Shown one piece after another: positions 43,126-54,843 of a stretch of DNA of 64,000 nt. The translations under genes and the position numbers were made by a program. Location: positions 256,001 to 320,000 of the forward strand of contig CAWAMW010000016.1 in NCBI GenBank assembly GCA_963783305.1, read 5' to 3'. Below the pieces are notes generated by a model. It worked only from the letters and a program-made list of their open reading frames with translations, made no database searches and was not told the DNA's origin. Source of the stretch: an uncultured Gemmatimonadales bacterium (GTDB taxonomy: Bacteria; Gemmatimonadota; Gemmatimonadetes; Longimicrobiales; RSA9). Numbering within the stretch: the first letter of the stretch is position 1; the number at the start of each line of letters is the position of its first letter.

Positions 43126-43863
43126 ATGAGCAGCGAACGACAGGACCCGTACGACCTGGCTTTTGGCGCGGAGTCGATGGACGAGCGGCTCTTCCCGCCC
43201 ATCGCGGAGGAGGCGGAGGCGCGGGATCAGCCGCTGGCGGACCCGGACCGTTTCGTATTCCTGAGCAGTGTGGGGAAGCTCCTCCAGGCCATCGCCGGGA
43301 GCGAGCCGTACGAGGGCGGGAAGAGCCCGACGGAGGAGGATCGCGAAGCTGTCCGGCAGTACGGCCGGCTGTTGTTCCACGCCTTCCACTTCTGGCGTGG
43401 CGGCAAGGTTCGCCGTGAGGTGGGCGAGGACCGGCTCCGCTGGCTCCTGGACGACGTCACCACCGTGGGCGACTGGGAGCTCCGCACGCCCGCGGGCTCC
43501 GGCTACCTCCGGCTGCCCCGCAACCTGGTCTGGGCGGCCCCCGCGCCGGGGCTTCCGCCCGAGCCCGTGGACGGACTCTTCTGGATGCTCGCGCGCCCTG
43601 ATGACGGGCGGGCGGTCCGGCTCCACATCCTCCTGACCCTGGGCGTCCGTTCCGACCGCGCCGGGTTCAGCGTGATCCCGGCCACCGGCGTGCTGGATGA
43701 CGAACGCCACTGGGCCGAGGTGCAGGGGCGTGCGGACGGGACCGACTTCGAGACGAACCTTCCCGGCGGTGAGATGGACGATCTCTACTCCATCGAGACG
43801 GCGGCGGAAGCGCTGAAGCTCGCATCGCTGGCCTTCTGGGAGCTGGACCCTGCGAGTGGATAA
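43126..43863 (+). CDS. Hypothetical protein upstream of polX
   Basis: Host-like codon bias; stop overlaps polX start. Confidence 0.75.
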   Translation: MSSERQDPYDLAFGAESMDERLFPPIAEEAEARDQPLADPDRFVFLSSVGKLLQAIAGSEPYEGGKSPTEEDREAVRQYGRLLFHAFHFWRGGKVRREVGEDRLRWLLDDVTTVGDWELRTPAGSGYLRLPRNLVWAAPAPGLPPEPVDGLFWMLARPDDGRAVRLHILLTLGVRSDRAGFSVIPATGVLDDERHWAEVQGRADGTDFETNLPGGEMDDLYSIETAAEALKLASLAFWELDPASG

Positions 43864-45575
43864 GGCGGTGGCGGCCCTCGTCCTCGAGGAGATCGCCGCA
43901 CTCCTCGCCCTTCAGGACGCCGAGCCGTTCCGGGTCCGCGCCTATCGCACCGCCGCGCGCGCCGTGGATGACGCACCCGGCGACCTCGACCGGCTCCTGG
44001 CCGACAACGAGCTGGCGGAGATCCCCGGGCTGGGCCCCGGCACCATCAGCGTTATCCGGGAGCTCGTGGAGACGGGCCGGTCCGGGCTGTACGACCGGCT
44101 CCGCGCCGAGACCCCGGCGGGAATCGTCCAGCTCCGCGGCGTCTCCGGGCTCGGGCCGAAGCGCGTCCGCACGCTCCACGAGGAGCTGGGGATCGAGACG
44201 CTGGAGGAGCTCCGCGCGGCCGCGGAGAGCGGCCGGGTCGCTCGCCTGAAGGGCTTCGGCCCCGCCACGCAGCGCCGGATCCTCGATGGGATCGACTTCG
44301 TCGCCGAGAGCTCCGGACGACGCCGCCAGCCCCAGGCCCACGGGACCGCCCACCGCCTGGTCGCCCACCTCCAGACGCTCGACGTGCGCGAGGTGAAGCT
44401 GGCGGGCGAGGTCCGGCGCGGCTGCGAGACCGTCGGCTCGATCGACCTGCTGGTGGTGTCCGAGGACGCCAATGCGGTGCTCGACGCCTTCATCGGGCTG
44501 CCGCACCTCACGCTGGCGGAGCGACAGGGCGCTGACCGGGCCCGCGCGGCCATGGCGGACGGCGCCACCATCCGCATCCGCTGCGTGGCGCCCGACGAGG
44601 CGCCCGCCGCGTGGGTGGCCCAGACCGGCTCGCCCGCCCACGTCGCGCGCCTCGAGGAGCGCGCCCGGACGCTGGGGTTCCGGCTCGACGACCGCGGGCT
44701 CTGGCGCCAGGAGGGCGGCGAGCGCATCCCCATCGCGGACGAGGAGGCGCTCTACGCCGCGCTGGAGCTGGAGTGGGTGCCGCCGGAGCTGCGGGAGGGG
44801 ACCGGCGAGGTGGAGTCTGGCGGCGGACGGTCGTCTGCCCCGGCTCGTCCGCTACGAGGACCTCCGGGGCACCTTCCACTGCCACACCACCTGGTCCGAC
44901 GGGCGCGGCACCGTGGCCGAGATGGCCGAGGGCGCGCTGGCCCGCGGGTGGCGCTACCTCGGCATCGCCGACCATTCCGCCAACGCCAGCTACGCCGGAG
45001 GCCTCACGGTGGAGGAGGTGCGGCAACAGCAGCGGGAGATCGACCGCTGGAACGCAGACCGCGGCGGAGAGCTGCGCCTCTTCAAGGGCGTGGAGGCCGA
45101 CATCCTGAACGATGGATCGCTCGACTACCCCGACGACGTGCTCGACTCCTTCGACTACGTCGTCGGGTCCGTCCACTCCGCCTTCCGGATGAAGGAGGCG
45201 GAGATGACCCGGCGCATCACGCGCGCGATCGCGGACCCGCGCCTCACCATCCTCGGCCACCCCACCGGCCGGCTGCTGCTGACCCGCGAGCCGTACGCGG
45301 TGGACATGAACGCCGTGATCGACGCGGCGGCCGGAGCGGGCGCCGCCATCGAGATCAACGCCGACCCCCACCGCATGGACATGGACTGGCGCTACTGGCC
45401 CGCGGCCCGGGAGAAGGGCGTCCGCTGCGCCATCGACCCCGACGCCCACTCCGTGGCCGGCCTCGGCGCTGTCGTGTACGGCGTGTCCATGGCCCGGAAG
45501 GGCGGGCTGGAGCCCGCGGACGTCATCAACACGTGGGAGCTGGAGCGGGTGGAGTCGTACCTGGGAGAGCGATGA
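43856..45575 (+). CDS. polX: DNA polymerase X / PHP 3'-5' exonuclease; +1 frameshift at ~44816
   Basis: PFRVRAY, HhH IPGLGP and GLGPKR, TGS..H, PPELRE; second frame continues HCHTTWSDG, DHS, GVEADI, GHPTGR, EINA, DAHS. Confidence 0.9.
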
Positions 45576-47125: not shown

Positions 47126-47683
47126 ATGCCGACGCGTGAAGATGCCGTTGCGCTGCTGGAGGAGTGGGTCGAGAACGAGGGCCTGCGCAAGCACATGTAC
47201 TCCGTCGAGGCCGCCGTCCGGAGCTACGCCCGGGACCAGGGCGAGGACGAGGAGCTGTGGGGGCTGGCCGGTCTCCTGCACGACCTCGACTGGGAGAAGT
47301 ACCCGGACCAGCACCCGCTCAAGGCGGTCGAAGCGCTCCGGGCTCGCGGCTACCCTGAGGAGGTCCTCCACGCCATCCTCGCCCACCGCAGCGACTTCAC
47401 CGGTGTGGAGCCCGAGACGCCGCTGGACCGGACGCTCGTGGCCTGCGACGAGATCACGGGGCTGGTCATGGCCACCGCACTCGTCCGCCCCAACGGGATC
47501 GATGACCTGAAGCCGAAGTCCGTCAAGAAGAAGATGCGCGACTCCGCTTTCGCTGCTGGCGTCGACCGCGAAAGTGTCCGGTACGGCGCCGAGCTCCTGG
47601 GCATCGATTTCAATGAGCACATCGCCAATGTCATAGCAGCCATGCGGGGGATCGGCGATGAGCTCGGGCTGAGCAGGGGGTAG
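47126..47683 (+). CDS. HD/HDIG domain metal-dependent hydrolase
   Basis: L.KH, GLLHDLD, HP, AILAH, ACDEITG, FAAGVDR. Confidence 0.92.
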   Translation: MPTREDAVALLEEWVENEGLRKHMYSVEAAVRSYARDQGEDEELWGLAGLLHDLDWEKYPDQHPLKAVEALRARGYPEEVLHAILAHRSDFTGVEPETPLDRTLVACDEITGLVMATALVRPNGIDDLKPKSVKKKMRDSAFAAGVDRESVRYGAELLGIDFNEHIANVIAAMRGIGDELGLSRG

Positions 47684-48000
47684 GATCCGGTGACGGTGCC
47701 GCGGACACCGACGAGTGCGCCGGAGTGTCCGCGACGGTGTCCGCGACACGCTCCTGTCGCGAGAACCGTCGCGGGCGGCGGACTCCGACTTTGGCTCGAA
47801 TCTCCGCGTACGCTGCCTCAAAAATGCACGCCAAGTCGAAGCGCCGAGGATCTAATGCGCACCAGTGTTGACTTGCTCGTTACTGAGAGATAGCGTCCAG
47901 TCAGGATCTGTGCGTGGCAGCTGGCATGCCCACCCCCTTGGGCACAGACCTCGAAGCGGAATCACTCCAGGTTCGTGGGTTCCTACCGCAAGGCAGAAAC

Positions 48001-48529
48001 ATGCCCACACTCCGCAAAGAATGGCTGACGCCGGGGATCGCACTGGTAGCAGTGCTACTGGTGGGCGCGCTGGCGTACCCGAACCGGCTGCTGATGGCGG
48101 ATCTGGCTGACCTGCAGTACCGGCCTGGCCCGCACCCTGGACGGTGATTCCCTCCAGATCGTGAGCGGTGTGAGATCGGACCGACAGGTCCTGGTCCTGT
48201 TTACCACCACCTGCCAGTATTGCGCGGCATCGGTGCCGACGTGGAACCAACTCGCACAACGCCTTGAACTCGACGGGACGAGTTTGGTCGGGATCTCGCT
48301 CGACTCCGTGCCCGAAACGGAATCGTACAGGCGCACGCACGGCCTACAGTACCCGGTCATTACGTTTCCCCTCGAGAGTCTTCGTCGGATGTATCGAGCC
48401 CATTCCGTCCCGATCACCATGGTAGTCGCTGGTGACGGCCGGATTATCTATTCACGAATGGGAGTGTTGAGTGACGGTCCTGCGGCGGACTCCGTAATCG
48501 CAGCGGTTCACTGGCGCCCGGCCGAGTGA
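48001..48529 (+). pseudogene. TlpA/peroxiredoxin-like thiol-disulfide oxidoreductase, split by a frameshift near 48135
   Basis: N-terminal TM ORF (MPTLRKEW...PHPGR*), then another frame TLDGDSLQI...FTTTCQYC...W..L...GISLD...VP.T.VV..DG.I. Confidence 0.75.
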
Positions 48530-48624
48530 GGCGGGATTCTGCCGGAGCAGTAGTCACGAGCTGCCATGCTCCGGTCGGGGGGACGTACTTCGGCGTCCCC
48601 GGAACACACCACGCGGAGGTTCTC

Positions 48625-48873
48625 ATGACACAATGGTTGAAGCGAGTTGCAAAGAGCGCAGCAGTTGGCGCCGCGGCGTTAGTGCTCACTTTTGGGGCCC
48701 ACACTCTCTATGCATCCAGCGCTCCGATCTCGGCCTGCTCACCACAGGATCCCGGCTATCTGGGAACGTGTCCTACATACACGCCCGAGACGTGCGAAAT
48801 GGACTGTGAATTCTATTTCCAGACCGATGGCAATCAGTGCGTCGGCGGATGCTGTATCTGCCAGACGCGATGA
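48625..48873 (+). CDS. Secreted cysteine-rich peptide (82 aa, 8 Cys), defensin-like spacing
   Basis: GGAGG RBS at 48615; ~30-aa signal peptide; stop overlaps next start (ATGA). Confidence 0.8.
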   Translation: MTQWLKRVAKSAAVGAAALVLTFGAHTLYASSAPISACSPQDPGYLGTCPTYTPETCEMDCEFYFQTDGNQCVGGCCICQTR

Positions 48874-50114
48874 CTGATCCAACCGGGATCGCACGCGGCG
48901 CGAGTCACCTGGGGTTCGCGCTCCTGTTGGCCCTGGTGGCCGCGTGCGATCCCGGCGAAGTATCTGTGGTGGATGTGGATCGTCGCACCACGCCGCCGGG
49001 CGACACGCTGTACGTCACCGTCCTCCGCCCCGACGGAACGCCTGCCGCCGATGCGGACGTGGGCTATCTCACGGGCATGGGCAGCACGAACTTCGTCTGG
49101 GGAGAGGCTCGCACCGATGCCGAGGGCCGGGTTGCCCTCACCAACCTCGCCTCTGGCGGCATGTACTGGCTCGGGGCCGAACAGGAGGACGCGGAGCTGG
49201 GCGTGTTGGGAGGGGGGGAGAAGGCTCAAGGGCCGTCCGGCGGATCCGCGGAGCTCCTGATCGAACTGTCACCGCCGCGCACGTCTGGCGTGGTGATCAG
49301 CGAGGTGTACATGGACGCCCCTAACCCGTGGGAGACGGGGGACACCTACTACTACTACAGCAAGTACATCGAGCTGGCCAACAACTCGCCCGCGCCGCTC
49401 TACCTGGATGGAATGCTGATATTTACCGCGTACGCGTGGTGGTATGATGCCGGCGTGGCCGGTCACCACCGGTGCGAGGACACGGCCACCATGCGGAACG
49501 ATTCGCTGGGCGTGTGGTCGGAGGTGATCTGGCAGATCCCGGGCTCGGGCTCGGAGCATCCGCTGGGGCCGGGCGAAGCCGCCGTTCTGGCGGTTTCGGC
49601 CGCGGACCACACCGCCATCCATCCGACGTTGCTGGACCTCTCCGGCGCAAGGTTCGAATTCGGCGTCTCCGGTGTGGCTGACAACCCGGCAGCGCCCGAC
49701 CTGATCTGGCACGGGCCCAAGCCGCCGACATCCAGTGATTTCTCTCTGATCCATATGTACTGGGGAGTGGCTTCACCCGGTGACGTAGACTCGTTCGTCA
49801 GCAGGCCTGATCCGGGCGCTACCGGCCGCGTGGACGAGTACCGGCGGATTCCAGCGGACCTGGTCGAAGATGTGTCGTTCGTCTTCTGGGATCGGACCGG
49901 GTCGTACTCGCAGGCTCCGCCGCGGCCCGCGTGCGACCACCCGGTCCACCCGACGTTCGACCGACTACCGGGGGGGTTCCTCCTCGAGAGCGAGATCGAG
50001 TTCTCCGGCCAGCGCCGGTCCGTCACGGTGAACGGTCGCTCGCTCCTGCTGGACACGAACACGAGCTGGGTCGACTTCATGAAGGCGGAGCGGACGCCGG
50101 GGTGGCTGCCGTGA
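48870..50114 (+). CDS. Lipoprotein, DUF4876-like
   Basis: Lipobox LVAAC; VISEVY...KYIELANNS..LYLDG, WQIPGSG..PL.PG, A.DH, DNP.APDL, L.DTN.S..DF. Confidence 0.8.
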   Translation: MTDPTGIARGASHLGFALLLALVAACDPGEVSVVDVDRRTTPPGDTLYVTVLRPDGTPAADADVGYLTGMGSTNFVWGEARTDAEGRVALTNLASGGMYWLGAEQEDAELGVLGGGEKAQGPSGGSAELLIELSPPRTSGVVISEVYMDAPNPWETGDTYYYYSKYIELANNSPAPLYLDGMLIFTAYAWWYDAGVAGHHRCEDTATMRNDSLGVWSEVIWQIPGSGSEHPLGPGEAAVLAVSAADHTAIHPTLLDLSGARFEFGVSGVADNPAAPDLIWHGPKPPTSSDFSLIHMYWGVASPGDVDSFVSRPDPGATGRVDEYRRIPADLVEDVSFVFWDRTGSYSQAPPRPACDHPVHPTFDRLPGGFLLESEIEFSGQRRSVTVNGRSLLLDTNTSWVDFMKAERTPGWLP

Positions 50115-52912
50115 GGCGGCGGGCGGCGGGCGTTCGAGGGCGACTCCTATTGCTGGCCCTGCTGGGCGCGCTGCCTGCCGGAGCTGCGGCCCAGTCCGTG
50201 ATCGTGGGGCACGTACTGGAGGCGCAGACGGAGGCGCCGATCGCGGGGGCGGCCGTGCAGGTCGAGGGGGTGCAGGGAGTGGTGCTGACGGACAGCGCGG
50301 GCCGGTACGTGCTGGCCCGCGTCCCGGCGGGTCCCCAGATGCTGCGGGTCGACCGGCTGGGTTATGCGACGGCGCGGGTGGCGGTGGTTGTCCCCGCCCG
50401 CGGCACGCTGCAGCAGGACGTGCGCATGGCCGAGACGGCGCTGGACATCGAGGGGATCGTGGTCACGGCCGACGTCGCGAGCCGCGCCCGGGGCGAGCTG
50501 GGCACCGCGAGCGTGGTGGGCGAGGACGCGATCCGTCAACAGACCGCGGTGAGCCTGGCGGGCGTGCTTGAGCTGGTGCCCGGGGCGCAGCTCGAGTCGC
50601 CCGGGCTCGAGTCGGTCTCGCAGGTGTCGCTCCGGGCCATTCCCACGTACGGGGCGGCGTCCACCACGAGCGGCACCAGCACCTCGGACCTGGCCAGCTT
50701 CGGGACGCTGATCGTGCTGGACGGCGTGCCGCAGACGAACAACGCGAACCTCCAGACGCTGGGATCCCGGGGCGAGCTGTCGTTCACGACCTCGGCGGGC
50801 GGCGGGATCGACCTGCGACGCATCCCCGCCGCGGCCATCGAGCGCGTCGAGGTGATCCGGGGCGTGCCCTCGGCCCGCTACGGCGACCTCACCCAGGGCG
50901 CCATCGTGGTGGACACGCGCACCGCGGCCATCCCGCCGGAGGTGATGGCCCGCTACGACGCCCGCAGCCTCGAGGTCTCGACGGTGGCGGGGCGGACGTT
51001 CGGCCGGGACGACCACGCCGGGTCGTTCACCATGGACATGGCGCGCACGCGGAGCCAGCCGGGTGTCTCCGACGATGAGACGCTCCGCGTGGCCGGCCAG
51101 CTCGCGCACCGCATCGCCGTCGGACCGTCCGGCGGCCTGGTGCTCGACACGCGGGTGGACGCGTTCCAGCTCGTGGACGACCGTCCGGAGGACCCGAACG
51201 TCCGGCCGGAGCGCTCCTCCTGGAGCCGGGACCGGGGGCTGCGCCTATCGGAACGGGCGCGACTCCGGCTGCCGTTCGACGCGCGCCTCACCTGGACGGC
51301 CTCCTACTCCCGACTCGAGCAGCGCTCGGTGGCCGCGTCGCCCCGGGTGCGCGGGCCGCAGCCGTTCACGGACCGGCTGACGCCGGGGCGGAGCGAGGGA
51401 CGGTTCGTCATCGGCCGCTACGAGTCGGAGCTCGCCATCGACGGGACGCCACATTTGCTGTTCTCGCGTCTCGAGCTCGCCGGCGAGCGGGACTGGCTGG
51501 GTCTGGCCCACGAGATCCGGATCGGGAACGAGCTGCGCCGGGAGTGGAACAGCGGGGCCGGGTACCAGTTCGACATGGAGTTCCCACCCCAGGTCACCTT
51601 CAACAGCGTTCAGGGCTACGACCGCCCCAGGTCGTACCACGATATTTCACCGCTCGTCCACACCGCGCTCTACATCGACGACCGCATGAGCCGCACGCTG
51701 CCGGGTGACGTGGTGATGAACCTGCAGGCGGGCTTCCGGGCGGACATGCTGCACGAGGGCGGCTGGTGGGCGTCGGGTGTGAGGGACGCGATCGTGCAGC
51801 CGCGCGTGAACCTGGAGCTGATCCCATGGCCGTGGCTGCGGCTCCGGGCGGGATGGGGTCGCACCGCGAAGACGCCCTCCCTCGCCCAGCTCTCTCCCTC
51901 GCCGCAGTACCACGACGTGGTGAACGTGAACTACTTCGCCAACGACCCGGCGGAGCGGCTGGCCGTGCTCACCACCAGCATCAAGGACCCCACCAACCCG
52001 GAGCTGGGTTTCTCCCGGGCGACGAAGCGGGAGGCGGGGCTCGAGCTCGCGCTGGGCGGGACGACCGTACAGATCGTGGGGTTCTCCGATCGGATCGATG
52101 GCGGCATCGGACAGCGCCAGGATCTCGACACGGTGCTGAGGGACCGATACGAGCTCACCGACAGCATCCTCGGCAACGGGATCCCCCCGACCATCATCGA
52201 GCCGCCCTACCGGACGGACACCATTCCGGTGCTCGTAGGACGCCCCGACCACATCCTGACCCTCGAGAGCCGGGGCCTGGAGCTCACGGCGCTCCTGCCG
52301 GAGTTCCGGCCGCTGCGCACCCGCCTGCAGGTGCAGGGCGCGGTGATCCGGACACGCCAGACCACCACCGGCGTCTATTATGGCCGTGGCGAGAGGTTCT
52401 CCGACTTCCAGCTGCTGGAAGGGATCCAGCGGATCCCGTACTGGGAGGGCGGCGCGGAAGAGAGCGAGCGGGCCCTCGTGACATACCGCCTCATCCACCA
52501 TCAGCCGGAGCTGGGTTTCGTGATCACCGGTGTCATCCAGCACAACATCCACGACTGGAGCGGTGCGGCCACGGCGACCGACACCCTCGCCTTCGATGGG
52601 TACGTGAACCGCCGGGGCGAGCGCGTGCCCGTGCCCCGGGAGGATCGGGCCGCGCCCGAGTATGCCGACCTCCGGGTCCCCCGGAGCGGGGTCCTCACGG
52701 AGCTCCGGGCGACGCCGGGGGACTGGATGCTGGGGCTCCAGGCCAGCAAGACGCTCCCCCTCGACGGCCGCCTCAGCTTCTGGGTCTACAACCTCTTCGA
52801 CAAACGGGGGATCTTCGGCGAGCTGGATGTGCAGCCCCGAACGTATGGCGCCATGCGGTTCGGGCTCGAGCTCAAGCTCGCCACCAGCGGGCTGACGGAG
52901 CTGCTCCAGTGA
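50111..52912 (+). CDS. TonB-dependent receptor
   Basis: GTGA overlap; signal peptide; carboxypeptidase-like N-domain; FGT.IVLDGVP..NNANLQ, GIDLR.I....IE.VEVIRGVPSARYGDLT.G plug. Confidence 0.92.
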   Translation: MRRRAAGVRGRLLLLALLGALPAGAAAQSVIVGHVLEAQTEAPIAGAAVQVEGVQGVVLTDSAGRYVLARVPAGPQMLRVDRLGYATARVAVVVPARGTLQQDVRMAETALDIEGIVVTADVASRARGELGTASVVGEDAIRQQTAVSLAGVLELVPGAQLESPGLESVSQVSLRAIPTYGAASTTSGTSTSDLASFGTLIVLDGVPQTNNANLQTLGSRGELSFTTSAGGGIDLRRIPAAAIERVEVIRGVPSARYGDLTQGAIVVDTRTAAIPPEVMARYDARSLEVSTVAGRTFGRDDHAGSFTMDMARTRSQPGVSDDETLRVAGQLAHRIAVGPSGGLVLDTRVDAFQLVDDRPEDPNVRPERSSWSRDRGLRLSERARLRLPFDARLTWTASYSRLEQRSVAASPRVRGPQPFTDRLTPGRSEGRFVIGRYESELAIDGTPHLLFSRLELAGERDWLGLAHEIRIGNELRREWNSGAGYQFDMEFPPQVTFNSVQGYDRPRSYHDISPLVHTALYIDDRMSRTLPGDVVMNLQAGFRADMLHEGGWWASGVRDAIVQPRVNLELIPWPWLRLRAGWGRTAKTPSLAQLSPSPQYHDVVNVNYFANDPAERLAVLTTSIKDPTNPELGFSRATKREAGLELALGGTTVQIVGFSDRIDGGIGQRQDLDTVLRDRYELTDSILGNGIPPTIIEPPYRTDTIPVLVGRPDHILTLESRGLELTALLPEFRPLRTRLQVQGAVIRTRQTTTGVYYGRGERFSDFQLLEGIQRIPYWEGGAEESERALVTYRLIHHQPELGFVITGVIQHNIHDWSGAATATDTLAFDGYVNRRGERVPVPREDRAAPEYADLRVPRSGVLTELRATPGDWMLGLQASKTLPLDGRLSFWVYNLFDKRGIFGELDVQPRTYGAMRFGLELKLATSGLTELLQ

Positions 52913-54579
52913 TGCCTCGGAGCCGGGTCCGGGCGCGGCGCCCCGACGCTCTGCGGAGCGTGCTGGCGGCCGGCTGCGTCGTCGGCTGGCTTCTGAGCCC
53001 TGTCGGTGAGGCGGCGGCCCAGATGGTCCCGGCTACCGGGAGCGGGCCGGGGCCCGAGTCGTGGATGACCCGGTGGAGCCCCCTGACGCCGCTGGGCGAT
53101 CTCCCCCGCGGCATGCCCGGCGCCGCTCCCGGCACGCCGGGCCTGCTGCTCACGCCGGCGCCCCGAGCCAGCCTGTTCTGGAGCCTGGGCAACCCCGCGG
53201 CCCTCGCCACGGAGCCACTGGACGGGTGGAGCACCTATCGGGTGGGGGGCAGCAAGAGCGAGGGCGAGTACCGTCGGCCGCTGGATCCCGCCCGGGAGGA
53301 CCGGCTCCGGATCTCCGCGGAGGGCTGGAGCGAGGCGGGGAGCCGCAGCGCGGCGGCGGGGCGCGTCGTCCTCGACCGCGTTACGCACGGGGCGCCCGCC
53401 CTGGCCAACGTGGCCGCGCCCTACGGCAGCAGCCCCCTCGTTGTGCTGGACACCGCCCACTCCGACCTGGGCAGCACGGCCGCGCGCCTCGAGGGTGCGC
53501 TGGCCGTGGAGCTCGGCGCCTTCGGACTCGGCGTGGCCCTCGGCTTCGACGCACTGGAGACCCGGACGGTAGCCGCTCCCGTCCCGCAGGCCATCCGCGC
53601 CGCGGTGCCCGGCGCGACGGCAGGCGCGACCTGGAAGCCCCTCGGCTCGGACCGCTTCCAGGTCGGCGTCCACGGCCGCTGGCAGCACTCCATGCAGCGC
53701 ATCAACCTCTACTCCCTGGCCGCGCCGACCCGCGTGTATCACCTGGCGGGGTACGGGGAGATCCCGCCCGTCAACGTCGTCTCCACCTTCTATCGCCGCG
53801 AGATGGAGCGGACCAGCCGGGGCGCCGGAGCCGGGCTCCAGGCCCGACTGGCGGGCGCGCGCCTCATCGCCTTCGCGGAGCTTTCCGACGCCGAGGAAGA
53901 GCAGTCCACCATCGAGGTCAACGACCCGCCGCTGGACGTGTGGGCCGCCGACCAGCTACGGTTCGGAGCGGTCATGCAGCGGCGGTTCCTGGCCGATCAG
54001 CTCCTGATCCACGCCTCCGCCACACAGGCGGAGGTGACCGGACGGGCACGGCTCCACGAGCAGGACGACCGGGTCGTCTTCACCACCGACGAGAGCGCCC
54101 TCCACCTCTCCCTCGACACCCGGTTGGACCTCGACTCCTGGAGCTTCGGCGCCCGGCTGACCGGAGCCCGGCACTCCCGGACCGCCGTCGACTCCACCGT
54201 GAGCGCCCGGTCCGAGATCCGGAGCTGGACCACCGGCGGCTCACTGGAAGGAGCGCGGCGGCTCGGCCACGGCTTCTCCGCCGCCGCCGGGGCCGCCCTG
54301 AACCTCTACCGCGCCGCGGGCGCCATCCCGAACCCCCTCCATCTCGGCGAGTCCTACAACGCCTACGTGGGTCCCGAGCTCGCCCTCTACGGAAGCGACG
54401 CAACCGCCCGCGCCGGCACGTTCACGCTGCGCTGGGACCGGCCCGCCGGCGGACCCGGCGTCTTCCTTCACGCCCGCGCCGCCTCCGCGGTACCCGGGGA
54501 CGAGGCGGGGTTGCCCCTGGCACGGCGCGACGCTCGACGATCGGGGTGGAGCATCACGTTCGGGGCGATCGTGAGGTGA
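52912..54579 (+). CDS. Outer-membrane beta-barrel protein, DUF6850-like
   Basis: Start overlaps TBDR stop; signal peptide; NPA.L, G.YRRP.D; amphipathic strands. Confidence 0.7.
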   Translation: MPRSRVRARRPDALRSVLAAGCVVGWLLSPVGEAAAQMVPATGSGPGPESWMTRWSPLTPLGDLPRGMPGAAPGTPGLLLTPAPRASLFWSLGNPAALATEPLDGWSTYRVGGSKSEGEYRRPLDPAREDRLRISAEGWSEAGSRSAAAGRVVLDRVTHGAPALANVAAPYGSSPLVVLDTAHSDLGSTAARLEGALAVELGAFGLGVALGFDALETRTVAAPVPQAIRAAVPGATAGATWKPLGSDRFQVGVHGRWQHSMQRINLYSLAAPTRVYHLAGYGEIPPVNVVSTFYRREMERTSRGAGAGLQARLAGARLIAFAELSDAEEEQSTIEVNDPPLDVWAADQLRFGAVMQRRFLADQLLIHASATQAEVTGRARLHEQDDRVVFTTDESALHLSLDTRLDLDSWSFGARLTGARHSRTAVDSTVSARSEIRSWTTGGSLEGARRLGHGFSAAAGAALNLYRAAGAIPNPLHLGESYNAYVGPELALYGSDATARAGTFTLRWDRPAGGPGVFLHARAASAVPGDEAGLPLARRDARRSGWSITFGAIVR

Positions 54580-54663
54580 GGGTACGGCTCCCCTCCAGAA
54601 ACACGACCCCACTCGAATTGCGATCACCCTTGTCGCGCCTTGTGTTCCGCACTGCGCTCGACT

Positions 54664-54834
54664 CCGAAGTCGTTTATGAAGAAGATGAAGGACGCCTCGT
54701 TCGCCGCCGGTGTGGACCGCGACGACGTCCGCCATGGCGCCGAGCTCATCGGCATCGATTTCGACGACCACGTCGCCAATGTCATTGCCGCCATGCATGA
54801 CATTGGCGATGAGCTCGGGCTGAGCCGGGGGTAG
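54664..54834 (+). repeat. Diverged duplicate of the last 56 codons of the HD gene
   Basis: PKSFMKKMKDASFAAGVDRDDVRHGAELIGIDFDDHVANVIAAMHDIGDELGLSRG* versus PKSVKKKMRDSAFAAGVDRESVRYGAELLGIDFNEHIANVIAAMRGIGDELGLSRG*; 42/56 identical by manual count. Confidence 0.93.
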
Positions 54835-54843
54835 GAGCGCCGG

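Follow-up and report, generated by a model that had tools for sequence, protein, structure and literature searches.

A predicted defensin-fold peptide and an oxidoreductase encoded beside a TonB-dependent receptor module in Gemmatimonadota

What is a small, cysteine-rich, secreted peptide doing in front of an outer-membrane uptake machine? The question is raised by a locus at positions 48001-54579 of the window, as the whole stretch of 64,000 nucleotides that was analysed is called here. The host belongs to the Gemmatimonadota, so the preliminary description of this DNA was right to place it outside the Bacteroidota. According to the ORF list and the sequence, the locus holds five gene-equivalents on the + strand (Table 1). 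Five same-strand genes had been described earlier; the number and the strand stand, but the first gene is split over two frames. The stop/start overlaps that had been read as chaining the last four genes are all present. The peptide stop and the lipoprotein start overlap as ATGA at 48870-48873, the lipoprotein stop and the GTG start of the receptor as GTGA at 50111-50114, and the receptor stop shares one base with the ATG of the DUF6850 gene in TGATG at 52910-52914. Through the ATGA overlap, the translation of the peptide and of the lipoprotein is coupled.

The five genes are bracketed between two copies of a 173-nt direct repeat, which are 80% identical and are both recovered when the HD protein is used as query. 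No empty insertion site was found in four congeners that share the DJ-1 and HD synteny; the sequence after their HD gene is neither the island nor the permease located downstream in the window. As for expression, contigs of metatranscriptome run X9 lie at 48211-48361, 49319-49424 and 49518-49668; contigs of this kind cannot prove a transcript, and DNA carry-over is possible. In runs X12 and X5, the locus is without cover.

Table 1 Features of the locus and of its flanks, in positions of the window
Feature	Position	Strand	Evidence
Direct repeat, left copy, 173 nt; 3' end of the intact HD-domain gene (47126-47683)	47513-47685	+	Repeat search, Pfam HD
Oxidoreductase gene, 5' part: short cytoplasmic tail and membrane anchor	48001-48147	+	ORF list, sequence
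Oxidoreductase thioredoxin-fold domain (AhpC-TSA/Redoxin), active site CQYC	48095-48529	+	Pfam
Shine-Dalgarno GGAGG, 5 nt ahead of the peptide start codon	48615-48619	+	Sequence
Cys-rich peptide gene, 82 aa, eight Cys	48625-48873	+	Sequence
Predicted Sec signal peptide, 30 aa, ending LTFGAHTLYA	48625-48714	+	Alignment with relatives
Mature peptide, 52 aa, and stop codon	48715-48873	+	Alignment A3
DUF4876-like lipoprotein, 414 aa, lipobox VAAC	48870-50114	+	Pfam, phmmer, alignment A1
TonB-dependent receptor, 933 aa, GTG start	50111-52912	+	Pfam, alignment A2
DUF6850 outer-membrane beta-barrel, 555 aa, ATG start	52912-54579	+	Pfam, AF2
Direct repeat, right copy; orphan 3' HD-gene fragment (ORF 54640-54834)	54664-54836	+	Repeat search

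The three large proteins had been assigned to DUF4876, the TonB-dependent receptors and DUF6850, and a Pfam scan bears these assignments out. The lipoprotein matches DUF4876 (PF16215) with 31.1 bits against a cut-off of 27.9, its residues 234-275 being aligned with positions 2-47 of the 186 in the profile, and CarboxypepD_reg (18.5 bits) and LTD (17.3 bits) both remain below their cut-offs. The homologue in the congener G005 reaches 42.2 bits for DUF4876, and a Pedobacter DUF4876 protein (148 bits) retrieves the window lipoprotein by phmmer. Judged by these comparisons, the lipoprotein is a divergent member of DUF4876. In the receptor, the Plug (52.9 bits), the TonB barrel (51.3 bits) and an N-terminal CarboxypepD_reg domain (51.4 bits) were recognised, as expected of a TonB-dependent receptor. 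Its score with the SusC/RagA model TIGR04056 is 50.6 bits, far below the cut-off of 368.25, which places it outside the SusC family; its partner is DUF4876-like and not SusD. The last protein matches DUF6850 (PF21012) with 69.9 bits against a cut-off of 27, over positions 1-439 of 464. The AF2 model of this protein (pLDDT 85.9, pTM 0.84) shows a barrel made entirely of beta structure, in which some 20 long strands are counted. Foldseek retrieved only generic large barrels for it (TonB receptors, FadL/TodX and CymA; TM 0.27-0.41) and no specific relative, nor did this fold search reveal any resemblance to barrels that translocate lipoproteins.

The arrangement is not a peculiarity of one contig. 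Related loci were collected with the receptor alignment (A2, 45-57% identity). The congener G005 shares all five genes and their order, with a lipoprotein that is 35% identical, and the five-gene order is repeated in dozens of other Gemmatimonadota loci. This recurrence indicates that the arrangement is not due to chance. Among 57 loci with a type-1 receptor and a lipoprotein, the peptide is present in 41, the thioredoxin in 40, both in 38 and DUF6850 in 56. Peptide and oxidoreductase are nearly always adjacent in these loci, and those with the peptide alone or the thioredoxin alone are explained by contig ends or by peptides escaping the filter. In contrast, neither a thioredoxin nor a family-type peptide was found in 35 distant loci from Bacteroidota, Chlorobi, Ignavibacteria, KSB1, Marinimicrobia and a second Gemmatimonadota type. 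The peptide is thus a conserved neighbour, and the earlier idea of a trio to which a secreted disulfide peptide has been joined is therefore correct. The cassette is confined to one receptor clade of Gemmatimonadota, and loci lacking it are dispersed over the receptor tree, which implies at least nine changes. In genome-wide profile searches, no class A or class B peptide (the two classes are defined below) was found in G186, G294, G438 and G152, which are complete or near-complete genomes carrying the trio, and the peptide is consequently dispensable for the core transporter. The same searches gave a match at E 2e-9 in the positive control G242, and G298 was searched with the class A profile alone.

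Within this clade, the cassette of oxidoreductase, peptide and lipoprotein undergoes tandem duplication and evolves faster than the receptor does. Tandem thioredoxin-peptide-lipoprotein units occur in loci including L063, L077, L088, L120 and L130. In the closest pair of loci (L133 and L106), identity is 91% for the receptor, 90% for DUF6850, 69% for the thioredoxin, 66% for the lipoprotein and 50% for the peptide. The further neighbours are an ECF sigma factor (7 loci), a second ECF sigma factor (5), a zf-HC2 anti-sigma factor (4) and a 570-aa ORF (6), and no extra neighbour is generally recurrent across type-1 loci. Neither CobW nor another metal gene was found near type-1 loci, and the locus has no gene for a periplasmic binding protein. 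Moreover, a search of the upstream regions of 49 thioredoxin genes brought up no shared operator of the Fur or Zur type. That search was crude: 7- and 8-mers were counted in about 280 nt around the starts of the genes, and no AT-rich palindrome or other word occurred in more than 11 loci.

The oxidoreductase is the least tidy part of the locus. In this assembly, its anchor and its thioredoxin domain occupy different frames. The frame of the domain is open from 48095, with GTG at 48161 as the earliest start codon, and the anchor ORF terminates at a stop because of the frameshift. In contigs of the soil runs X2 and X6, which come from two studies, 38 extra bases are found at 48123/48124. As 38 equals 2 modulo 3, the anchor and the domain share one frame in these contigs. 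Contigs of X3 end at this break point, those of X1 have no coverage over 48104-48200, and the G005 homologue is intact, with the same anchor followed by the domain. The Pfam scores are 37.3 bits for AhpC-TSA (cut-off 26) and 28.8 bits for Redoxin. The nearest named families of the domain are ResA, DsbE, StoA and TlpA in NCBIfam, with 15-36 bits against cut-offs of 123-230, and the enzyme is a member of none of them; weak NCBIfam matches to TrbB and to TraF-like proteins were also obtained. The active site has the form C-x-[Y/F]-C in 41 of 51 distinct thioredoxin domains, with CPYC in 20 of them and CQYC in the window, where the C-x-P-C of TlpA, ResA and DsbE (CcmG) is absent. Presumably, C-x-[Y/F]-C and CPYC are in the style of DsbC, DsbG and glutaredoxin and not in that of TlpA, ResA and CcmG. 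One natural fusion joins anchor, thioredoxin and defensin domain in a single protein (P0075). Since DsbA-like, VKOR and DsbB homologues are encoded in the host genome, the periplasm is likely oxidising. A DsbD_TM/CcdA homologue is encoded as well.

The peptide of the window has no match in Pfam (E of 0.01 or below) or in NCBIfam. Its signal cleavage site was set from the alignment with relatives and not from a signal-peptide predictor, and an L-x-F-G ... A-x-A signal pattern is repeated across the family. The family comprises two cysteine frameworks. Class A is C..C..CxxxC..C..CCxC, which is plant-defensin-like, is found in 122 of the 124 library representatives and is carried by the window peptide (net charge -5). 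Class B is CxxC..CxxCC..C..CxC, which is chlorotoxin-like. The defining framework of cysteine-stabilised alpha-beta (CSab) proteins, C...CxxxC...C...CxC, is invariant across 34 class A and 20 class B peptides. When profiles were compared with PDB sequences, all 34 matches of class A were CSab proteins, with plant defensins at weak E-values of 3e-4 to 8e-4. Likewise, all 11 matches of class B were CSab proteins, also with weak E-values, chlorotoxin being at 0.019; xanthusin-1 (7unx) was at 0.76. The AF2 model (pLDDT 78.5) has a strand at 15-18, a helix at 24-35 and strands near 42-48, so that the helix and antiparallel sheet of CSab proteins are seen in a predicted model. With this model, 48 of 50 Foldseek matches were CSab proteins, every E-value being 1.5 or higher. 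Cys2 and Cys5 are jointly missing in 5 of 34 class A peptides, giving a six-Cys variant, as expected if these two cysteines were a disulfide pair. The peptide is predicted from sequence and model to adopt the CSab, or defensin, fold. It is considered very probable that the module is genuine and conserved and that its peptide is of the CSab type. Mature peptides of the family are anionic in 167 of 172 cases (97%), with one positive member and a median charge of -4; the net positive charge of antimicrobial defensins is lacking. Conserved positions are the cysteines and a glycine at one position, and no conserved non-Cys metal ligand was found in the peptides. Two other candidates were rejected: a RiPP precursor, as no modifying enzyme recurs near the loci, and a metallothionein, given the CSab framework and the paired loss of cysteines.

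The preferred answer to the opening question is uptake. The locus would be a Gemmatimonadota elaboration of a widespread module of TonB-dependent receptor, DUF4876 lipoprotein and DUF6850 protein, to which a cassette of a membrane-anchored thioredoxin-fold oxidoreductase and a Sec-exported, acidic eight-Cys peptide was added. The co-encoded oxidoreductase likely folds the peptide into four disulfides. Once folded, the peptide would act outside the cytoplasm, be it in the periplasm, at the cell surface or in the medium. There it may partner the lid lipoprotein, by physical contact, in capturing the substrate of the transporter, possibly a metal. The position of a peptide and its own oxidoreductase beside a TonB-dependent uptake machine makes nutrient capture likely and not killing. 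That the peptide indeed serves uptake together with the lipoprotein and the receptor is quite possible, if short of probable. The scavenging or sensing role suggested for it in the preliminary description is likewise putative.

Several observations touch on uptake and on metals. DUF4876 proteins are described in a preprint as predicted lids on the outer face of receptors (bioRxiv 10.1101/2023.03.17.533168), and for P. gingivalis and B. thetaiotaomicron it is reported that iron depletion raises the expression of loci with DUF4876 and receptor genes 20- to 200-fold (PMC10434189). The capture of iron from proteins, to which such loci had been linked earlier, was not found in the literature retrieved, which deals with the induction and the predicted lids. 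Furthermore, CobW/COG0523 GTPase genes stand beside 4 distant receptor-DUF4876-DUF6850 loci. The link to metals is thus drawn entirely from distant relatives of the trio. On the other side stand the trios lacking the cassette, the dispensable peptide, the broken oxidoreductase frame of this assembly, the weak E-values of the defensin (best 3e-4) and Foldseek matches, and the lack of metal ligands, operator and metal genes in the searches described above. A bolder form of the uptake reading, in which Gemmatimonadota use the defensin fold for feeding, is regarded as doubtful. Acidic four-disulfide CSab carriers, forming a large and fast-evolving family, would be privately folded, released and recaptured with a scarce cation by lid and receptor, and would make up a novel class, the 'defensin-type metallophore'.

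Unlikely, yet foremost among the rival explanations, is a defensin-type bacteriocin with the fast-evolving lipoprotein as immunity or export partner, the whole being a toxin-immunity cassette beside a transporter. CSab is the fold of defensins and scorpion toxins, and the known bacterial CSab peptides are reported to be antimicrobial (PMC6989792, PMC8819291, PMC11561630). The tandem, fast-diverging units of peptide and lipoprotein resemble toxin-immunity arrays, L003 has a tandem row of four peptide genes, and a strain in run X4 carries a diverged block of the same length within the coding region of the mature peptide. The charge of the family speaks against killing, as defensins are cationic. 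Moreover, the lipoprotein is homologous to DUF4876 lids that accompany receptors in phyla lacking the peptide, and no dedicated exporter (ABC or MATE) recurs near type-1 loci, where no extra neighbour occurs in more than 7.

Less probable again is a peptide kept reduced in the periplasm, where it would serve as a thiolate metal carrier or redox partner receiving what the receptor imports, its thiols being maintained by a TlpA/ResA-like reductase fed by CcdA/DsbD. The nearest named families of the thioredoxin domain are indeed reductases, all below cut-off, a DsbD_TM/CcdA homologue is available, and a periplasmic binding protein is missing from the locus. Some plant defensin-like proteins have been reported as metal binders. 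The frameworks, however, are exactly those of disulfide-stabilised CSab proteins, and Cys2 and Cys5 disappear together. An active site that is mostly C-P-Y-C, not C-x-P-C, and a periplasm that is likely oxidising count against a reduced peptide as well.

In an improbable third explanation, the outer-membrane complex would include the peptide as a stoichiometric subunit with a structural or gating task and without a ligand-binding role of its own. It might, for example, close the lateral opening that lid and receptor leave between them, or the lumen of the DUF6850 barrel. CSab toxins are pore blockers. The coupling of its translation to that of the lipoprotein and its duplication along with lipoproteins would suit a subunit, as would the opening of about 20 Å left in the DUF4876-receptor models of Bacteroides that the preprint presents (bioRxiv 10.1101/2023.03.17.533168). 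Close relatives of the receptor nevertheless function without the peptide, which also diverges much faster than receptor and barrel. Finally, a thioredoxin-peptide pair lying beside the transporter genes by mere coincidence is very improbable: the core trio does occur without the pair, but the pair adjoins the lipoprotein in 38 to 41 of the 57 loci, in varied orientations and in families at 45-57% receptor identity, the peptide stop overlaps the lipoprotein start in the window, and the class A family (124 representatives) was found in no other context among the loci examined.

Receptor-DUF4876-DUF6850 loci are among the genes most strongly induced by iron starvation in gut and oral Bacteroidota. 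A lineage that encodes its own peptide partner offers a handle on what this machine binds. So far, bacterial CSab peptides have been regarded as antimicrobials of a small number of phyla. The Gemmatimonadota add at least 170 distinct, almost uniformly anionic CSab-type members with both frameworks, syntenic with a transporter and an oxidoreductase. They extend what is known of the roles of the fold and of its distribution, and bring a new bacterial group to studies of defensin evolution. If the feeding reading is true, plant-defensin-like and chlorotoxin-like frameworks both exist as bacterial nutrient-uptake parts, which would bear on the origin of eukaryotic defensins.

Among known systems, the Bacteroidota loci BT1938/39, BT3631-33 and PG1019-22 are the closest to the core trio, with a homologous receptor (26-35% identity), lipoprotein and DUF6850 protein. 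The Bacteroidota-type lipoprotein has the architecture CarboxypepD_reg, LTD and DUF4876. In the Gemmatimonadota loci with the cassette, the lipoprotein or lipoproteins precede the receptor, whereas the receptor comes first in the Bacteroidota loci. The thioredoxin and the family-type peptide set the window apart from all 35 Bacteroidota-type distant loci, and regulation by iron has been described for the loci of Bacteroidota alone (PMC10434189).

For the peptide, the nearest bacterial counterparts are the cis-defensins, of which five classes are described (PMC11561630), and which include xanthusin-1 and the actifensins. They share the CxxxC ... CxC framework and a signal peptide followed by a domain of about 35-50 aa. 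The main text of that article reports them from Proteobacteria/Myxococcota, Acidobacteria and Actinobacteria, whereas the window belongs to the Gemmatimonadota; the terms 'TonB', 'gene cluster' and 'Gemmatimonad' are absent from that main text. No paper that connects peptides of the defensin type to TonB-dependent receptors or to Gemmatimonadetes was found in the literature search. In contrast to cis-defensins, the peptides of the window family are nearly all anionic, share an operon with a receptor and an oxidoreductase of their own, and have the class A or the chlorotoxin-like class B framework. Plant defensins (PDF1, Rs-AFP1) and chlorotoxin-type scorpion toxins were the best PDB profile matches over the whole domain. 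They have eight cysteines and four disulfides, and the eight cysteines of the window peptide would correspond to the same number. They are eukaryotic, mostly cationic and used in defence or venom, and the similarity is weak (E 3e-4 and 0.02). The fourth disulfide would also differ, as the window family has a CC before the final CxC and the plant and scorpion proteins a C-terminal cysteine.

TonB-dependent uptake assisted by hemophores or surface lipoproteins is exemplified by HasA-HasR, TbpB-TbpA with Slam, BtuG-BtuB and ferredoxin import by FusA. By analogy, the logic may be shared: a small secreted or surface protein grabs a scarce nutrient and passes it to a TonB-dependent receptor encoded by a neighbouring gene. 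The window peptide, disulfide-knotted and of about 5 kDa, has no relation in sequence or fold to those proteins. Dedicated thiol-disulfide oxidoreductases in peptide gene clusters are likewise familiar, for example BdbB for sublancin and TrbB/TraF for F pili. There too, the gene of a thioredoxin-fold enzyme adjoins that of a Cys-rich secreted product, and the enzyme of the window differs from them by its type, a membrane-anchored AhpC-TSA/Redoxin protein with mostly CPYC in its family.

The five-gene anatomy on the plus strand (48001-54579) that the preliminary description had drawn is borne out by the reading frames and the sequence, as is its chain of overlapping stop and start codons across the last four genes. 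The Pfam scan proposed for the three large proteins scored all of the expected assignments, DUF4876, TonB receptor and DUF6850. The DUF4876 match of the lipoprotein (31.1 bits) is barely above the cut-off and covers a short stretch, and the DUF6850 match of the last gene reaches 69.9 bits. The peptide has no match in the Pfam scan. None of the five products is above the NCBIfam family cut-offs, and the receptor is far under the SusC/RagA threshold. The structure predicted for the DUF6850 protein has a well-predicted N-terminal segment and then some 20 strands forming a large barrel; a structure search with it gave no specific relative.

Genes of the locus in the window
Feature	Coordinates	Strand	Remarks
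Thioredoxin-fold oxidoreductase gene	start 48001	+	Pfam AhpC-TSA/Redoxin
Peptide gene, 82-codon ORF	48625-48873	+	GGAGG ribosome-binding site ahead
Lipoprotein gene	48870-50114	+	ATGA overlap; Pfam DUF4876
TonB-dependent receptor gene	50111-52912	+	GTGA overlap; Pfam CarboxypepD_reg, Plug and barrel
DUF6850 barrel gene	52912-54579	+	TGATG overlap; Pfam

The closest related loci belong to Gemmatimonadota. Among 61 near relatives, the lipoprotein was found only in the window's genome and in one congener (G005), which has all five genes in unchanged order at another chromosomal location. In an even sample of the phylum, 28 of 401 genomes encode a lipoprotein homologue, frequently as tandem copies. 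The suggested neighbourhood survey compared 41 lipoprotein places and 80 more loci from a receptor-alignment search, annotated by phmmer with the window proteins and by rules that pick out small secreted reading frames rich in Cys. Identical loci were merged (76 unique of 86), with at least one near-duplicate pair (L059/L101) left. Excluding the window, 57 loci combine a window-type receptor (44-72% identity) with the lipoprotein, and the co-occurrence with a peptide holds in 41 of them (at least one peptide each). A thioredoxin gene is present in 40/57, thioredoxin and peptide together in 38/57, and DUF6850 in 56/57. A peptide without thioredoxin occurs in 5 loci and the reverse in 6; these are short contigs or contig ends, or hold a peptide missed by the filter (L065, L087). 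The order is receptor, DUF4876, DUF6850 in the 35 distant loci (26-35% receptor identity; phmmer, with Pfam on two loci) from Bacteroidota, Chlorobi, Ignavibacteria, KSB1, Krumholzibacteria, Marinimicrobia and a second Gemmatimonadota type. None of these 35 has a thioredoxin match, and no reading frame with the family framework was seen in them by eye.

The thioredoxin and peptide genes adjoin each other and a lipoprotein gene, in any orientation to the receptor. This unit can be present two to three times per single receptor-DUF6850 pair (e.g., L063, L077, L088, L112, L120, L130). Where the receptors of two loci are 60-98% identical (18 pairs), the median identity is 65% for the receptor, 51% for the lipoprotein, 49% for the thioredoxin, 46.5% for the peptide and 46% for DUF6850. 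The closest pair shows ~90% identity in both receptor and DUF6850, versus 66% in the lipoprotein, 69% in the thioredoxin and 50% in the peptide. In a receptor tree of 63 rows, the 11 cassette-free rows are scattered and need at least nine changes, and in four trio-carrying genomes that are complete or nearly so, profile searches found neither peptide class anywhere, while recovering the positive control at E 2e-9. Therefore, the cassette is an optional add-on, repeatedly lost or swapped, on a conserved core.

Other observations concern the cassette and its surroundings. A strain contig from run X4 has an equal-length, strongly diverged block in the mature-peptide coding region (window 48761-48838) between well-matching flanks, which hints that the peptide is hypervariable between strains. 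Four defensin-like peptide genes stand in tandem on a 2.5-kb contig (L003, G060:C579, 218-1304), where neither lipoprotein nor receptor is visible. In seven loci, an ECF sigma gene lies between divergent cassette and receptor (e.g., L115, 7375-8923); a zf-HC2 anti-sigma gene takes this position in four.

The compared loci yielded 54 distinct peptides. Searching 1.84 billion representatives with a profile brought in a further 124 matches (E <= 0.001), none of them an apparent plant defensin; 122 share the framework, as 70-93-aa precursors or, once, as a 207-aa fusion. In all members, a signal peptide whose end recurs as L-x-F-G ... A-x-A precedes a domain of 35-55 aa closing in CxC. The window peptide belongs to class A, with the framework C..C..CxxxC..C..CCxC; class B has CxxC..CxxCC..C..CxC. 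A PDB search with the class A profile gives plant defensins across the whole domain (2n2r, 3e-4; 2m8b, 4e-4; 1ayj, 8e-4), and all 34 matches up to E 10 are proteins of the cysteine-stabilised alpha-beta (CSab) fold. The class B profile finds chlorotoxin at 0.019, and its 11 matches are all CSab, including the myxobacterial defensin xanthusin-1. An AF2 model from the alignment (pLDDT 78.5) shows strands with a helix packed against them; 48 of its 50 Foldseek matches are scorpion toxins or defensins, though all stand at E 1.5 or worse for this short chain. Five class A peptides lack both Cys2 and Cys5, a joint absence that fits the pairing expected in a CSab fold. Mature peptides are net negative in 167 of 172 distinct cases (median -4, range -11 to +2), with 0.9% lysine, and have no conserved ligand residues besides Cys. 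This acidity speaks against a classical defensin role. The peptide as a bacteriocin, with the lipoprotein as immunity protein, is compatible with part of the data.

As for the oxidoreductase, Tyr or Phe precedes the second active-site Cys in 41 of 51 distinct thioredoxin domains, with CPYC in 20. DsbC, DsbG and glutaredoxin typically carry such a dipeptide, unlike the TlpA/ResA/CcmG reductases, so a disulfide-forming or disulfide-shuffling role is favoured from the active-site motif. The window's genome also encodes DsbA-like, VKOR, DsbB and CcdA/DsbD homologues, which could support either redox direction; a peptide acting as reduced-thiol carrier in the periplasm agrees with some of the observations. 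The 207-aa library protein P0075 joins an anchor and a CPYC thioredoxin domain to a defensin-like domain of class A that lacks its own signal peptide; the fusion may be genuine or an artefact of gene calling. In three peptide-adjacent thioredoxin homologues, the matched domain has no CxxC (L112, 361-1041 and 6575-7291; L129, 2311-3015).

In the window, the reading frame of the membrane anchor (48001-48147) differs from that of the thioredoxin domain (open from 48095). The G005 homologue is an intact 184-aa protein with both parts, and contigs of two soil runs from separate studies (X2, X6) carry 38 additional bases precisely at 48123/48124 that bring them into frame. Contigs of run X3 break off at this point too, and the near-identical run X1 has no contig cover over 48104-48200, so the break may be either a real deletion or an assembly error. 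A polX-like gene (~43856-45575) within 4 kb of the broken thioredoxin gene is also split at ~44.8-44.9 kb, with Pol-beta thumb and HhH (43856-44890) and PHP (44790-45575) in different frames, so assembly indels may lie behind the splits.

A 173-nt direct repeat (80% identity; 47513-47685 and 54664-54836) flanks the five genes; its left copy is the 3' end of an HD-domain gene and its right copy an orphan of that end. The G+C content is 0.64-0.65 over 46-50 kb versus ~0.70 elsewhere. The repeat, the lower G+C, the patchy distribution and the other location in G005 all point to a ~7-kb segment acquired through recombination at the HD gene. An integrase is absent, and congeners yielded no empty site.

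The conserved operon couples synthesis of the peptide to that of the predicted lid lipoprotein. The peptide would be exported by Sec, and the anchored oxidoreductase would fold it with four disulfides. The folded peptide may then partner the lipoprotein, at the cell surface or as a putative released carrier, and capture the receptor's import substrate. CobW/COG0523 GTPase genes are a mark of zinc-limitation regulons. One adjoins each of four distant loci (L142, 7291-8541; L140, 16328-17599; L146; L091), from Pedobacter and the second Gemmatimonadota type. Separately, 8-9 distant loci encode, after DUF6850, a conserved unnamed protein (~290-300 aa). According to two reports, DUF4876 lipoproteins of Bacteroides are predicted lids at the receptor's outer face (bioRxiv 10.1101/2023.03.17.533168), and DUF4876-receptor loci are among the genes most induced by iron starvation in P. 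gingivalis and B. thetaiotaomicron (PMC10434189). Neither iron induction nor a CobW neighbour was seen at window-type loci. The metal link of the distant trios and the uniformly acidic peptide surface suggest a cationic or metal substrate. Weak points of the capture reading are that the cassette is dispensable to the core trio and that the peptide conserves no ligand residues besides Cys; a structural or gating subunit is likewise compatible with part of the data.

Bacterial cis-defensins have been described in Proteobacteria/Myxococcota, Acidobacteria and Actinobacteria, in a paper whose main text does not mention "TonB" or "gene cluster" and for which the search listing gives no "Gemmatimonad" (PMC11561630). 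Literature searches gave no paper combining defensin, Gemmatimonadetes and cysteine-stabilized, and none among the papers listed links defensin-like peptides to TonB-dependent receptors. The conserved partnership is rated as unreported, and joins a transporter module and a peptide fold that are each known.
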